From the sequence record OQ680138.1: DNA of 39,968 bases. One strand, given 5' to 3'. The translations under genes were made by a program, and so were the position numbers. This DNA comes from Escherichia phage PH1061. Positions 3,377 through 39,968 of this stretch are shown here, in pieces. The number at the start of each line of letters is the position of its first letter. Position 1 is the first letter of the stretch. The notes beneath the pieces were generated by a model that had not been told where the DNA came from, searched no databases, and worked only from the letters and a program-made list of their open reading frames with translations.

Positions 3377-3399
3377 CCTAAACTATCACTATAGGATTA
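3377..3399 (+). promoter_or_regulatory. Phage RNAP promoter (phi1.1-like), CTAAACTATCACTATAGGA, +1 near 3394
   Basis: Consensus match. Confidence 0.8.
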
Positions 3400-3404
3400 G
3401 ACTC

Positions 3405-3431
3405 AAGGTCATGACTCAAAGTCGTGGCCTT
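3405..3431 (+). promoter_or_regulatory. RNase III-type processing hairpin (R1.1-like): 11-bp stem AAGGUCAUGAC / GUCGUGGCCUU, 5-nt loop
   Basis: Stem-loop read from sequence; paralogous to hairpins at 11404 and 34622 with compensatory changes; position matches T7 R1.1. Confidence 0.65.
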
Positions 3432-3473
3432 CATGATTAACCCTATAACCTAAACAACTGGAGATTTAACCAC

Positions 3474-6396: not shown

Positions 6397-6414
6397 ACTA
6401 TCACTGTAGGACAG
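6392..6414 (+). promoter_or_regulatory. Phage RNAP promoter variant (phi2.5-like), CTAAACTATCACTGTAGGA, +1 near 6409
   Basis: One mismatch (-3 A to G); overlaps the gp2 stop codon. Confidence 0.65.
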
Positions 6415-11228: not shown

Positions 11229-11393
11229 GTGTTAAATAAACTTAAAGCTCGCTACCATCGGTTCATGTACAAATGGTGGAGCGATGAAGCAACCTTCCTG
11301 TCCAACATTCTAGGAGACCAGAGGTTCGACTCTAAGGCGTGGAAGAGAGCTAACCGGAAGTTTATGTATCACTTCTTGCGTACAGACTTCTAG
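11229..11393 (+). CDS. Possible small protein, 54 aa, GTG start (gene 4.x position)
   Basis: RBS GGAGGA 8 nt upstream of GTG; below track cutoff. Confidence 0.3.
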   Translation: MLNKLKARYHRFMYKWWSDEATFLSNILGDQRFDSKAWKRANRKFMYHFLRTDF

Positions 11394-11403
11394 GTCTAGA
11401 CTC

Positions 11404-11428
11404 AAGGTCATTCACATCGAGTGGCCTT
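11404..11428 (+). promoter_or_regulatory. RNase III-type processing hairpin (R4.7-like): 10-bp stem AAGGUCAUUC / GAGUGGCCUU
   Basis: Paralog of 3405 and 34622 hairpins with conserved flanks TAGACTCAAGG and ATGATTA. Confidence 0.65.
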
Positions 11429-11456
11429 TATGATTAGACTAAACGGAGGATTAACC

Positions 11457-20234: not shown

Positions 20235-20240
20235 TTGAAA

Positions 20241-20277
20241 CCCCTTGGGTGCCTTCGGGTGCTTGAGGGGTTTTTTT
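20241..20277 (+). terminator. Tphi-like late terminator: CCCCUUGGGUGCCUUCGGGUGCUUGAGGGG followed by UUUUUUU
   Basis: Close resemblance to T7 Tphi (AACCCCTTGGGGCCTCTAAACGGGTCTTGAGGGGTTTTTTG) and same position after gene 10. Confidence 0.9.
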
Positions 20278-20298
20278 GCTTAAAGTGAGAGGAGACTT

Positions 20299-23459: not shown

Positions 23460-23483
23460 CTTATTGAAGGGCCTATAGATTTA

Positions 23484-23506
23484 CCTTAACTATCACTATA
23501 GGGACT
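23484..23506 (+). promoter_or_regulatory. Phage RNAP promoter (phi13-like), CCTTAACTATCACTATAGGGA
   Basis: Consensus match. Confidence 0.85.
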
Positions 23507-23535
23507 ATAGGCCCTTAAGGTTATAAGGAGACTTT

Positions 23536-34350: not shown

Positions 34351-34610
34351 CTCAGATGGACTTAGAGAAGTTCCTCTTAATGCTAGATACTGAACGTGCT
34401 CGACTCATGCTGCAAGACCTGCGGGATGACTCTAAGCGTTCACCTCAGCTTTACAACGCCATTGAGAAGCTACTGGCTCGTCACAACTTCGTGTTAAGTA
34501 AGGTGTCTGTGGACGAGAAGACGCTGGCTGATATGGAGGCCCTGAACGCAGAGTACGATAAGGTGCTTTCAGCGACTGAGGATAATGACACCGGGTATGG
34601 CGTTCAATAA
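34347..34610 (+). CDS. 18: Terminase small subunit (gp18-like), 87 aa
   Basis: RSPQLYNAIEKLLARHNF matches T7 gp18 RSPQLYNAINKLLDRHKF. Confidence 0.9.
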   Translation: MTQMDLEKFLLMLDTERARLMLQDLRDDSKRSPQLYNAIEKLLARHNFVLSKVSVDEKTLADMEALNAEYDKVLSATEDNDTGYGVQ

Positions 34611-34621
34611 GTGTTAGACTC

Positions 34622-34648
34622 AAGGTCATTACTATATGTAGTGGCCTT
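34622..34648 (+). promoter_or_regulatory. RNase III-type processing hairpin (R18.5-like): 11-bp stem AAGGUCAUUAC / GUAGUGGCCUU
   Basis: Third paralog of the conserved hairpin family; position matches T7 R18.5. Confidence 0.65.
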
Positions 34649-34711
34649 TATGGTTAACACTAACTAGTGGAGTAGACTCTACGTGAAATCTGATAAACCG
34701 GGAGGGCAACT

Positions 34712-35161
34712 ATGCTCGAATTTTTAAAGAGAGCGGCTCCGTGGTTACTTGCAGCAGTGATGTTTGCTGGTGGCTACCACACCGCTAACAATAAGTGGGA
34801 GGCTAAGGTCAATGCAGAATACACCTCGAATCTTAAGGCATCGGAAGATACAAGGCTTGCTGTCCAAGCTGAAGTCAACAAAGTGTCCAAGCGGTTTCAG
34901 GACGAAATGTCCTCGCTGGAAGGCAGCACTGATAGGATTATTGCTGACCTTCAGTCTGACAATAAGCGGCTGCTCATCCGAGTCAAACCTACGAGTGGAA
35001 CCACGCAAAGTGACGGTCGATGCGTCATTGATGGTTACGCCGAACTTGACGAACGAGATGCTAAACGTCTTATCGCCATCGGAGTGAAAGGGGACAAGTG
35101 GATTAAGGCACTTCAGGACACTGTGAGGGCCTTGCAGCAAGATAAGGAGGTGACGCATTGA
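34712..35161 (+). CDS. 18.5: Inner-membrane spanin (Rz-like, gp18.5), 149 aa
   Basis: N-terminal TM segment then coiled-coil periplasmic region; position after gene 18. Confidence 0.85.
34812..35087 (+). CDS. 18.7: Outer-membrane lipoprotein spanin (Rz1-like, gp18.7) embedded in the +1 frame of gene 18.5
   Basis: Lipobox LTISGC; [12 protein letters not shown] and [18 protein letters not shown] match T7 gp18.7. Confidence 0.85.
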   Translation: MQNTPRILRHRKIQGLLSKLKSTKCPSGFRTKCPRWKAALIGLLLTFSLTISGCSSESNLRVEPRKVTVDASLMVTPNLTNEMLNVLSPSE

Positions 35162-36921
35162 GTAAAGACTTAGTGGCGCGTCAGGCGCTAATGACTGCCC
35201 GTATGAAGGCAGACTTCGTGTTCTTCCTGTTCGTTCTATGGAAAGCTCTGTCACTCCCAGTCCCGACTCGCTGTCAGATTGACATGGCGAAGAAACTATC
35301 GGCTGGGGACAACAGGCGCTTCATCCTTCAGGCGTTCCGTGGTATCGGGAAGTCATTCATTACGTGTGCCTTCGTGGTCTGGAAGCTATGGAACAACCCA
35401 GACTTGAAGTTCATGATTGTGTCGGCCTCAAAGGAACGAGCCGATGCGAACTCCATCTTCATCAAGCGAATCATCGACCTCATGCCTCAGCTTCAGGAAC
35501 TCAAGCCTAAGCAGGGACAGCGAGATGCGGTTATCAGCTTCGACGTTGGGCCAGCCAAGCCAGACCACTCACCTTCGGTTAAGTCCGTGGGCATCACTGG
35601 TCAGTTGACTGGTAGTCGTGCTGACATCCTGATTGCCGACGACGTGGAGGTTCCGAACAACTCAGCGACTCAGGCTGCACGAGACCGTCTGTCAGAGCTT
35701 GTGAAAGAGTTCGATGCTATCCTGAAGCCGGGAGGTACAATCATTTATCTGGGCACTCCTCAGAACGAGATGACCCTGTACCGTGAGTTGGAAGGACGTG
35801 GATACACCACTACTATCTGGCCTGCTCGTTATCCACGTGATAAGAAGGACTGGCAGTCTTACGGCGACCGTCTGGCACCGATGCTTCAGGCAGAGCTGGA
35901 AGAGGACCCTGAGTCCTTCTACTGGCGTCCGACTGATGAAGTACGCTTCGATGATACGGACCTGAAGGAGCGTGAGCTGTCATATGGTAAAGCTGGCTTC
36001 GCTCTACAGTTCATGCTTAACCCGAACCTGAGTGATGCCGAGAAGTACCCTCTGAAGCTCCGTGACCTTATCGTAGCCGACTTGGACCCAGCGTCCAGTC
36101 CAATGGTCTACCAATGGTTGCCGAACCCTCAGAACAAGCGTGAGGACGTTCCTAACGTTGGACTCATGGGTGACTCATACCACACGTATCAGACTGTAGG
36201 TTCTGCCTTCAGCTCGTACACCCAGAAGATTCTGGTCATTGACCCTAGTGGTCGTGGTAAGGATGAAACTGGCTATGCGGTACTGTATCAGCTCAACGGC
36301 TATATCTTCGCTATGGAAGTTGGTGGTATGCGTGGTGGCTATGAAGACTCTACGCTGGAAGCCTTGGCTAAGATTGGTCGTAAGTGGAAGGTCAACGAAT
36401 ACGTCATTGAGGGTAACTTCGGTGATGGTATGTACCTTGAGTTATTCAAGCCTGTAGCGGCCCGTGTCCATCCTGCTGCTGTAACTGAAGTGAAGAGCAA
36501 GGGTCAGAAGGAACTCCGCATCTGTGACGTTCTGGAGCCTATCATGGGGTCTCACCGACTTATCGTCAACGCTGCTGCTATCGTCCAAGACTACCAGACA
36601 GCCTCTGACAAGGATGGTGTGCGTAACCCTATCTACTCTCTCTTCTATCAGATGACCCGTATCTCTCGCGAACGTGGAGCCTTGGCACACGATGACCGAC
36701 TTGATGCGCTGGCTATCGGTGTACAGTTCTTCGTTGAGTCGATGGCTAAGGATGCCAACAAAGGCGAACGTGAAGTCACTGAGGAGTGGCTGGAGGAACA
36801 GATGGAGAACCCACGGAAAGGCTTCGAGTCCATCCACACTGAGTTCTGGGACAATGGGGTCCGGGTAACTCACAATACGGACGACGAGCTGGGACTAGGG
36901 TCCTACGTTACGTTCCACTAA
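35158..36921 (+). CDS. 19: Terminase large subunit, 587 aa, apparent TTG start
   Basis: Size of T7 gp19 (586 aa); RBS AAGGAGGT 6 nt before TTG; no in-frame ATG near the start. Confidence 0.93.
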
Positions 36922-36930
36922 CTGAGTGAA

Positions 36931-36979
36931 TAACTATAGGTGAAAGCTGCATGAATACGCAGTTAGTAACCTATAGTTA
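36931..36979. repeat. Perfect 11-bp inverted repeat TAACTATAGGT / ACCTATAGTTA with 27-nt spacer, immediately after the terminase gene
   Basis: Read from sequence; arms contain the promoter-core-like TATAGG on both strands. Confidence 0.8.
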
Positions 36980-37015
36980 CTACCAGTCTAACCTACTGTT
37001 TTACAAAGAGTTTGG

Positions 37016-37038
37016 ACTTAACTATCACTATAGGGAAG
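37016..37038 (+). promoter_or_regulatory. Phage RNAP promoter (phiOR-like), CTTAACTATCACTATAGGGAAGA
   Basis: Consensus match; lies between genes 19 and 19.5 as phiOR does in T7. Confidence 0.85.
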
Positions 37039-37217
37039 ACCCCCGGTTACTTATAGTATTACTGTAGTGAATATACATATGCAGACTTTATGCAAGACCT
37101 TAGGAGGCAGACTCCGAGTTCTTACCTAAGGCTTGCACCGATGGAAGGAGGTGATATTAATCATAATACCTCCAATACAGATAGTCACCGACCATAGATA
37201 CAGGAGGTATGTAGCAT

Positions 37218-37376
37218 ATGGCAAAGACCAAAGCTGTACTTAAAGCTCTGGCGACCAATCGAGCTACATACAGGTTTCTTGCTGCTGTTCTACTTGCTGC
37301 TGGCGTTACTGCTGGAAGTCAGTGGGTCGGGTGGGTCGAGACTCTCGTATGTTCTCTGGTCTCTCAGTGTAATTAA
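37218..37376 (+). CDS. Small hydrophobic protein, 52 aa (gene 19.5 position)
   Basis: Strong RBS AGGAGGT before ATG; predicted TM segment; below track cutoff. Confidence 0.6.
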   Translation: MAKTKAVLKALATNRATYRFLAAVLLAAGVTAGSQWVGWVETLVCSLVSQCN

Positions 37377-37437
37377 CGCAATCATGGTAACGATTCATGA
37401 AAGGAGGTAGTATGATCGGTTATGGCGAAGGCTGAAG

Positions 37438-37581
37438 ACCTAAGGTCAGTTCATAGCTGACGCTACTCTACTGACCTTAGCTACTGTAGTCAAGGACCTA
37501 AAGTAACACTATAGCAGTCCATGGTCTATCCCAAGGTCTCTGACCTACGGTATTGCCTACAGTAGCAGGGACTCCTAAGGA
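37438..37581. repeat. Array of degenerate heptamers (CCTAAGG, CCTAAAG, CCTACGG, CCTACAG) preceding the predicted right terminal repeat
   Basis: Read from sequence; analogous to T7 CCTAAAG short-repeat arrays flanking the terminal repeat. Confidence 0.6.
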
Positions 37582-37618
37582 GGGACGATGAGTTTTGGAC
37601 CAAAAGTTTGAGACCACA

Positions 37619-37825
37619 TCTCACAGTTCAAGAACCTCAAGTCTCCCCATAGGCCCTCTTTAAGTCCAGACCAAAGGCCCTACCCCAGTCTATCATAAGG
37701 TTAGACCGATGGTCAAGACTTCAGGTCAACGATAGGTCTAGGCTATGGCTGGAGGTCAGGACGATAGGTTGGGACTATGGGTCTTCTTTGAGTCTCTATC
37801 TGTATAGTGTTATAGTATAACATTA
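37619..37825. repeat. Predicted genome left end and terminal-repeat region (collapsed to one copy); begins TCTCACAGTT...
   Basis: TCTCACAG...CCCCATAGG... resembles the T7 left terminus (TCTCACAGTGTACGG...CCCCCATAGGGGG); exact repeat length not determinable from a single copy. Confidence 0.55.
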
Positions 37826-37828
37826 CGT

Positions 37829-37930
37829 CCTACAGCCTACAGTCTCACTAACCTACAGTATCAACCATAAGACACCAACACCTACAGTCATAGACCTACA
37901 GTTAATAGACACAAGGCTATAGACTTACGG
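37829..37930. repeat. Array of at least 5 CCTACAG heptamers plus a CTTACGG variant following the predicted terminal repeat
   Basis: Read from sequence. Confidence 0.7.
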
Positions 37931-38013
37931 TCAAAGACATGTTAGTCAAAGACTATATCCTCTTACACCATGAGGCCGACGATAGCTTAATCAATATTAT
38001 TTAAGATTACCTA

Positions 38014-39582: not shown

Positions 39583-39908
39583 TGAGTAAATCTTATGGCA
39601 TCAACTTGGTCCATGCATTTGACGCAGACCTTAATCTGCTTTCAGCACTAGCTACAGGCTACCGTCACGGGACCTCAAGTCACACCATTCGTCAACAGCA
39701 GGAGCGTGACCGTGTACTACAGGCACGACTACGGGCCGAGGGACATAAGGCCGAGCTGATGTGTCTGGCGTATGGTGGACGACCAATCACCGACGATGGT
39801 AAACTTCTGGTCTCAGGCTGGAAGGCGATAGACCAACGGTCAACCATCAAGCACACGACTCATGGTGACTTCAGTCATCTTCACGCTAACCCACTGATAT
39901 GCAAGTAA
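39582..39908 (+). CDS. Hypothetical early protein, 108 aa, at the position of T7 gene 0.7; no protein-kinase motifs
   Basis: TAATG coupling with the previous ORF; the 3' end is duplicated at window positions 1..51. Confidence 0.6.
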   Translation: MSKSYGINLVHAFDADLNLLSALATGYRHGTSSHTIRQQQERDRVLQARLRAEGHKAELMCLAYGGRPITDDGKLLVSGWKAIDQRSTIKHTTHGDFSHLHANPLICK

Positions 39909-39913
39909 TTCTG

Positions 39914-39936
39914 ACTTAACTATCACTATAGGACTC
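39914..39936 (+). promoter_or_regulatory. Phage RNAP promoter upstream of the RNAP gene (same element as 57..79)
   Basis: TTAACTATCACTATAGGA. Confidence 0.7.
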
Positions 39937-39968
39937 AAGGTCTAAGACTCCAAGTGAAAGACCAAAGA

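Follow-up and report, generated by a model that had tools for sequence, protein, structure and literature searches.

The perfect palindrome that follows the terminase gene (gene 19) of Escherichia phage PH1061 is the lower helix of an imperfect stem-loop in the RNA of the transcribed strand. Among related phages the pairing of this stem-loop has been conserved while the sequences of its arms have been exchanged. With moderate confidence, it is best read as an element involved in stabilisation or processing of the 3′ end of the gene 19 mRNA, i.e., as a conserved RNA structure and not as a promoter or a packaging signal.

T7-like phages are workhorses of molecular biology and of phage therapy; K1F, for example, targets E. 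coli K1. The DNA analysed here (the window) is the whole of a 39,968-nucleotide stretch from sequence record OQ680138.1. About 218 phage records match the region at 95-99% identity, and the majority of these are Kayfunavirus (K1F, EcoDS1, SH3, and numerous Escherichia and Salmonella isolates). As assembled, the window is circularly permuted and does not keep the natural linear order of this Kayfunavirus (K1F/EcoDS1-like, T7-like) genome: positions 1-111 are identical to positions 39858-39968 (111 bases), the unit length is 39857 bp, and the promoter at 67 is the same promoter as that at 39924. The order gene 19, phiOR, gene 19.5, terminal repeat is the same in the window as in the carefully annotated record of EcoDS1. 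All genes of these phages are carried on the + strand.

The stem-loop and its surroundings

The features of the region are as follows.

35158-36921, + strand: gene 19 (terminase large subunit), from the list of open reading frames; the matching sequences, in EcoDS1 and about 200 further records, are annotated as terminase large subunit or gp19
36919-36921, + strand: stop codon (TAA) of gene 19; the outer stem of the hairpin begins with its final A
36921-36928, + strand: outer stem, 5′ side (ACUG.GUG), in the minimum-free-energy and centroid folds
36931-36941, + strand: lower stem, 5′ arm UAACUAUAGGU, the left arm of the palindrome; changes on both sides in 7 of the 11 pairs among relatives
36942-36944, + strand: internal loop, 5′ strand (GAA), unpaired in the fold
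36945-36950, + strand: upper stem (6 bp), 5′ side (AGCUGC), from the fold
36951-36958, + strand: apical loop of 8 nt, AUGAAUAC; with the flanking UGC/GCA the most widely conserved piece
36959-36964, + strand: upper stem, 3′ side (GCAGUU), from the fold and relatives
36965-36968, + strand: internal loop, 3′ strand (AGUA), completing a 3 × 4 internal loop
36969-36979, + strand: lower stem, 3′ arm ACCUAUAGUUA, the right arm of the palindrome, from the fold and relatives
36981-36987, + strand: outer stem, 3′ side (UACCAGU), in the folds
36989-36998, + strand: conserved single-stranded block TAACCTACTG in the gap between hairpin and phiOR, also kept in Berlinvirus (as TAACTTACTG) and in the relative L054
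37016-37038, + strand, +1 at 37033: phage promoter phiOR, outside the hairpin, scoring 34.6 bits on the promoter matrix and annotated as phiOR in EcoDS1
37218-37376: gene 19.5
37619-37797: terminal repeat of 179 bp, present as a single collapsed copy and placed by alignment with the EcoDS1 repeat

Directly 3′ of the terminal repeat is the sequence ATCTGT(A) (repeat and sequence together spanning 37619-37803), where the EcoDS1 record annotates a "concatemeric junction"; this is likely to be a class II pause signal of the phage polymerase. The single-stranded block at 36989-36998 resembles a copy of the right arm of the palindrome (TAACCTATAG) and is partly kept in T7 (AGTTACTG).

The initial annotation had described an inverted repeat here, and the description holds: TAACTATAGGT (36931-36941) and ACCTATAGTTA (36969-36979) are 100% complementary over 11 bp and are 27 nt apart. 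The left arm begins 10 nt past the stop codon of gene 19, and phiOR lies downstream, with 54 nt from the end of the right arm to the +1 position (37033). The mini-hairpin seen in the spacer (CTGC at 36947-36950, GCAG at 36959-36962) is likewise present, and the RNA fold extends it to AGCUGC/GCAGUU. The RNA of the whole region, 36921-36987 (about 67 nt), folds at -26.3 kcal/mol (z = -6.3), with the palindrome as the 11-bp lower helix of a stem-loop that starts at the stop codon of gene 19 and ends 46 nt before the +1 of phiOR. Among the ten regions upstream of promoters in the window, only that containing the hairpin (z = -4.1) and the region of the early terminator are strongly structured.

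Perfect 11-bp inverted repeats with a loop of up to 60 nt occur in dinucleotide-shuffled windows with a mean of 0.48, and the probability of at least one is 0.39. The window has three, all of them intergenic (P = 0.013 by the same shuffles). As one such repeat alone is not beyond chance, the case for the element rests on its relatives.

The arms had also been said to carry the initiation core of the phage promoter. The 8-mer ACTATAGG is indeed present, on the + strand at 36933 and on the - strand at 36970, but the likeness goes no further. Scored with a 23-nt matrix (-17 to +6) derived from the promoters of the window itself, the arms give -8.8 and -14.6 bits, compared with 33-37 bits for real promoters and 25-29 bits for variant promoters, and neither arm matches the 23-nt consensus of K1F-type promoters. 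TATAGG is confined to one lineage and does not occur in the arms of type C, D or E relatives, so that neither a promoter nor a promoter relic with activity describes the arms. Since selection keeps the pairing and not the sequence of the arms, the likeness is incidental. The variant promoters in the window are CACTGTAGG (29.1 bits) and CACCTTAGG (24.8 bits), the sites being listed with +1 at 6409, 9430 and 37514; the gap from gene 19.5 to the terminal repeat holds a degenerate promoter-like sequence, CCTAAAGTAACACTATAGCAGTC (15.9 bits).

Pairing, strand and occurrence among relatives

Relatives were taken from IMG/VR, metagenomes and GenBank. The cells of the pairs were standard in 86.2% of cases in a MAFFT alignment (n = 21; at most 48% when the partners were slid), and 86.5% were paired when 34 distinct sequences were aligned to a covariance model (at most 46% in slid controls). 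MAFFT shifts the lower stems of type D and Berlinvirus by one register, which makes the percentage of paired cells an underestimate for these two groups. In the MAFFT alignment, changes on both sides were present in seven pairs and the covariation score was reached by 0 of 500 shuffles; among the 34 distinct sequences, 12 of the 21 pairs had compensatory double changes, and the covariation score was 0.279 (0.145 for shuffles, at most 0.075 for slid controls), where it should be considered that shuffle statistics overstate the significance because the sequences are related and not independent.

The robust part of this evidence is that the whole lower stem has been replaced in several lineages. 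In Dev2/SH4-type, L016-type and EcpYZU01-type phages the lower stem is wholly different, with the architecture kept. It is UAUGGG/CCCAUA in type B relatives, AUACCUACGCA/UGCGuUAGGUAU in the Dev2/SH4 type and GUACCG/CGGUAC in type D, and the EcpYZU01 type has another stem, of 16 bp. Compensated changes are found outside the lower stem too: pair 5-68 of the outer stem is changed from U-A to C-G in type B relatives, and a C-G pair of the upper stem is changed to A-U in phage ST1 and to G-C in Berlinvirus.

The covariance model was built from the 21-sequence MAFFT alignment, with Berlinvirus absent from the training set. It finds a single copy in the window, and it matches the Berlinvirus FE44 and PYPS50 group at 38-43 bits, where the terminase is only about 54% identical. 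The Berlinvirus element has the same GAA/AGUA loop, the compensated upper stem and a different lower stem. A match weaker than that of Berlinvirus is present in L054. More widely, across 155 distinct autographivirus loci the mean z of the 100 nt 3′ of the terminase stop codon was -1.8, compared with -0.18 for a control segment inside the gene (mononucleotide shuffles), and z was below -2 in 39% of these loci after the stop codon compared with 6% inside the gene. Thus, a hairpin after the terminase gene is common in autographiviruses, although not all of these hairpins are homologous.

In the window alone the two strands fold equally well (-26.3 and -26.1 kcal/mol), and discrimination between them comes from the relatives only. 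In the 34 distinct sequences there are 62 G·U cells but 13 A·C cells, and the + strand gives the more stable fold in 29 of the 34. This points to a structure of RNA, on the transcribed strand. An RNA-level element had been among the options of the initial annotation, and it is the one supported by the compensatory changes, by G·U outnumbering A·C and by the bias towards the + strand. The pattern of substitutions would fit a cruciform, or a site for a dimeric protein, poorly.

The hairpin is dispensable. In several complete-length relatives (L012, L014, L015, L031 and L032) HNH cassettes take its place, and the GenBank record of isolate PE3-1 is also without the hairpin part of the query. The cassettes encode two unrelated HNH endonucleases (138 aa and 180 aa), placed in the gap between gene 19 and phiOR (L012:2112-2528, L014:2114-2656, L015:2110-2652, and in L031 and L032); the 180-aa cassette also displaces sequence downstream of the promoter. 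This gap is a natural insertion site, having been taken by both. A target site for a homing endonuclease was considered as the main explanation for the hairpin, given that HNH genes occupy the gap, and was rejected, as such a target would not show compensatory changes in its stems.

The internal and apical loops

The GAA of the internal loop is opposite AGUA in 30 of the 34 distinct sequences, across Kayfunavirus types A to C and Berlinvirus. AGUA/GAA is the canonical sequence of the sarcin-ricin (loop E) motif (PMC1865062), and in the window 5′-AGUA-3′ (36965-36968) faces 5′-GAA-3′ (36942-36944) between two helices and with the correct polarity. The strands and their orientation are those of the bulged-G motif, the would-be sheared A·G sits beside the lower helix, and the variable position is where the flanking U/A or A/A falls. 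Among relatives the pair that flanks the core is U/A, A/A or U/U, and the corresponding "lower tSH" position varies in known sarcin-ricin motifs (PMC8450098); the core itself shows no isosteric changes, and type D is without the motif. A sarcin-ricin fold may be predicted for this loop from its letters. Most known examples come from rRNA, RNase P, introns and viroids. In the gene 19 hairpin the motif is a sequence match, which type D does not have; such a module in the 3′ untranslated region of a phage message would be an unusual context for the motif.

The apical piece UGC-N8-GCA extends further than the rest of the element, being present in T7- and T3-like genomes which have no long stem. 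In the 150 nt that follow terminase stop codons, the pattern TGCAT-N5-[ACT]GCA was counted 27 times, compared with twice in 486 kb of other sequence. T7 (L029, 39131-39175) and the T7-like L138 have UGC-AUAGGGAU-GCA followed by CACTATAG right after gene 19, without a long stem (L066 is also listed), and this piece resembles a decayed form of the hairpin element. The strict conservation of both the internal and the apical loop exceeds what a passive barrier would need, which hints at a specific partner.

Possible functions and comparison with known elements

The function that we favour, with the moderate confidence given above, can be described as follows. Late transcripts from upstream phage promoters would read through the hairpin in the 3′ untranslated region of gene 19. 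There, the hairpin would block 3′-to-5′ exonucleases, serve as a cleavage site for a double-strand-specific nuclease (RNase III of the host), or do both. In either case the message of gene 19 would end in a protected 3′ hairpin and be separated from the RNA of phiOR and gene 19.5, in a manner similar to that of the T7 RNase III sites next to other late promoters.

The system to which this is most readily compared is the series of RNase III hairpins of T7 and T3 (R0.3 to R18.5), especially the late non-canonical sites R6.5 and R13 by phi6.5 and phi13. The T7 sites leave a 3′ hairpin which stabilises the upstream message, and their coordinates are reportedly those of Dunn & Studier 1983. The T7 sites gave folds consistent with these coordinates, with the cleavage points on the 3′ side of internal loops, and the sites adjoin or surround late promoters. 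The gene 19 element shares with them an intergenic position next to a phage promoter, a place on the transcribed strand, a length of roughly two helical turns, and an imperfect hairpin interrupted by an internal loop. It differs in having the opposite proportions (lower stem of 11 bp, upper stem of 6 bp, loop of 8 nt) and GAA/AGUA as its internal loop; the GACUCAAGGUC...GGCCUUUAUGAU signature is missing, and cleavage is only putative. A search with up to three mismatches found no canonical RNase III signature (CUCAAGGUC ... GGCCUUUAUGAU) at 36921-36987, and this rules out membership of the canonical T7 family; the same signature has matches elsewhere in the window, at 3426, 11423 and 34643. 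Three canonical T7-type hairpins (GACUCAAGGUC...GGCCUUUAUGAUUA) lie at about 3390-3447, 11393-11440 and 34608-34661, and the EcoDS1 record annotates none of them.

The second comparison is with the 3′ stem-loop stabilisers, or retroregulators, i.e., the REP-type hairpins and lambda sib after int, which govern how the message upstream decays in the 3′-to-5′ direction, whether RNase III takes part or not. These, too, are hairpins just 3′ of a stop codon; unlike the gene 19 hairpin, they are without a conserved internal-loop module. The hairpin is a familiar kind of element with one unusual, putative feature in the sarcin-ricin-like loop. What counts against a role at the 3′ end of the message is that the canonical RNase III signature is absent, that T3 and T7 have no site after gene 19, and that in the window alone the two strands of the hairpin fold equally well. 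The T3 record annotates RNase III sites including R18.5, yet none between gene 19 and phiOR, and the T7 region after gene 19 is barely structured (z = -1.26) and has no such site. The hairpin is not annotated in the records examined (EcoDS1, K1F, FE44 and T3), nor is it represented in Rfam: the whole window gave zero Rfam matches at or above the gathering threshold, and a permissive search of 36880-37040 gave only chance-level hits (E > 2). Searches of the literature for RNase III sites or hairpins 3′ of gene 19 in T7-like phages returned nothing relevant, nor did those on regulatory elements of K1F or on loop E and RNase III in phages.

It is possible, if doubtful, that the stems are a scaffold, and that GAA/AGUA and the apical loop are recognised by a phage or host protein, or by another RNA, with translational or stability control of the terminase mRNA among the possible roles. 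The hairpin would then be, equally tentatively, the founding member of an undescribed family of cis-acting RNAs, in which a docking factor controls the fate of the terminase mRNA; it would then go beyond a generic stabilising hairpin or RNase III site. Such a family would extend over Kayfunavirus and Berlinvirus, and T7 and T3 would have kept only its apical part. Each of GAA and AGUA is kept in 30 of the 34 distinct sequences, in two genera, while the helices around them change. Together they make up the canonical sarcin-ricin sequence (PMC1865062), and the position flanking the core changes from U/A to A/A, as does the variable "lower tSH" of known motifs (PMC8450098); the apical UGC-N8-GCA is kept even in T7 and T3. 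The three-dimensional motif, however, is read from sequence, type D Kayfunavirus and L054 retain a hairpin without the GAA/AGUA loop, and the phages carrying HNH genes have lost the element. It is improbable that the phage RNA polymerase pauses or terminates at the hairpin, which would limit late read-through into phiOR, the right end and the concatemer junction. The hairpin is stable and comes right behind the last long late gene, and a U-rich sequence, CUGUUUUAC, follows 14 nt downstream. The class I terminator Tphi is likewise a stable hairpin behind a late gene. Tphi alone, however, has a GC-rich stem leading directly into a U-run, as in the genuine Tphi of the window (at about 20237-20278, GC-rich stem then U7), whereas here the lower stem is AU-rich and is followed by CUACCAGUCUAACC. 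The hairpin is not a terminator of the Tphi type, because it has no U-tract, and a terminator scan of 36000-38000 was empty; the suggestion of a terminator in the initial annotation is not upheld. The downstream U-rich block is not kept in types B, C and D, and a class II (ATCTGTT-type) pause at CUACUGUUUU was rejected, the match being imperfect and absent from the conserved features of types B to D.

A role of the palindrome as DNA, i.e., as a cruciform or single-strand hairpin for packaging, concatemer processing or phiOR-linked replication, is very improbable. The palindrome is perfect here, both DNA strands fold at about -11 kcal/mol (z about -4.4), and the location is in the right-end region near phiOR. 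However, the terminal repeat (37619-37797) is 640 bp away and is not adjoined by the hairpin, the arm sequence has been exchanged freely while pairing was kept, positions that are G·T on one strand in relatives are A·C on the other (the 62 and 13 cells given above), and T7 and T3 have no hairpin. Because of its distance from the terminal repeat and its replacement by HNH cassettes in related genomes, the hairpin is not an essential packaging signal, and the packaging or concatemer option raised at the outset is not supported. That the palindrome arose by chance, or as a decayed duplicate of a promoter, and has no function of its own is scarcely credible: about 0.5 such repeats are expected per window, and the left arm resembles a promoter from which CACTAT has been deleted (TAACTAT[CACTAT]AGG), but the covariation contradicts this, since compensatory changes have accumulated and the architecture has been kept across lineages and genera. 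Least credible of all is that the region encodes a small protein. The window has an open reading frame of 38 aa at 36951-37067, and the K1F RefSeq record (L197, 349-453) annotates a 34-aa "hypothetical protein", gp41, from an AUG in the hairpin loop into phiOR. The AUG, however, is missing (AUU) in L005, L010 and ST1, the frame of type C stops after four codons, and the open reading frame crosses the phiOR promoter. As the frame is not conserved in relatives, the K1F gp41 annotation is probably spurious; some annotation pipelines call a spurious open reading frame inside the hairpin.

If the hairpin sets the 3′ end or the stability of the terminase mRNA, as we favour, it would be relevant to quantitative models of late expression and to genome engineering. 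Such elements may also carry a cost, because hairpin-forming phage palindromes, including RNase III sites, have been reported to trigger the Lamassu DdmABC defence (PMC11707656).

Two other palindromes were noticed in the window. A perfect 12-bp palindrome, AAGGGCCTATAG/CTATAGGCCCTT (23467-23516), encloses the phi13 promoter, with ACTATAGG in tandem at 23495 and 23504; this arrangement resembles that of T7 R6.5 and R13, in which the promoter is inside the RNase III hairpin or forms it. The other is a perfect 11-bp inverted repeat after gene 19.5, CTAAGGTCAGT/ACTGACCTTAG (37440-37480), the arms of which are invariant in all the Kayfunavirus types examined, while three unrelated loop sequences are found among these types. 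As its arms show no covariation, this repeat could act at the level of DNA or protein, and it is a better candidate for a right-end signal than the palindrome after gene 19.
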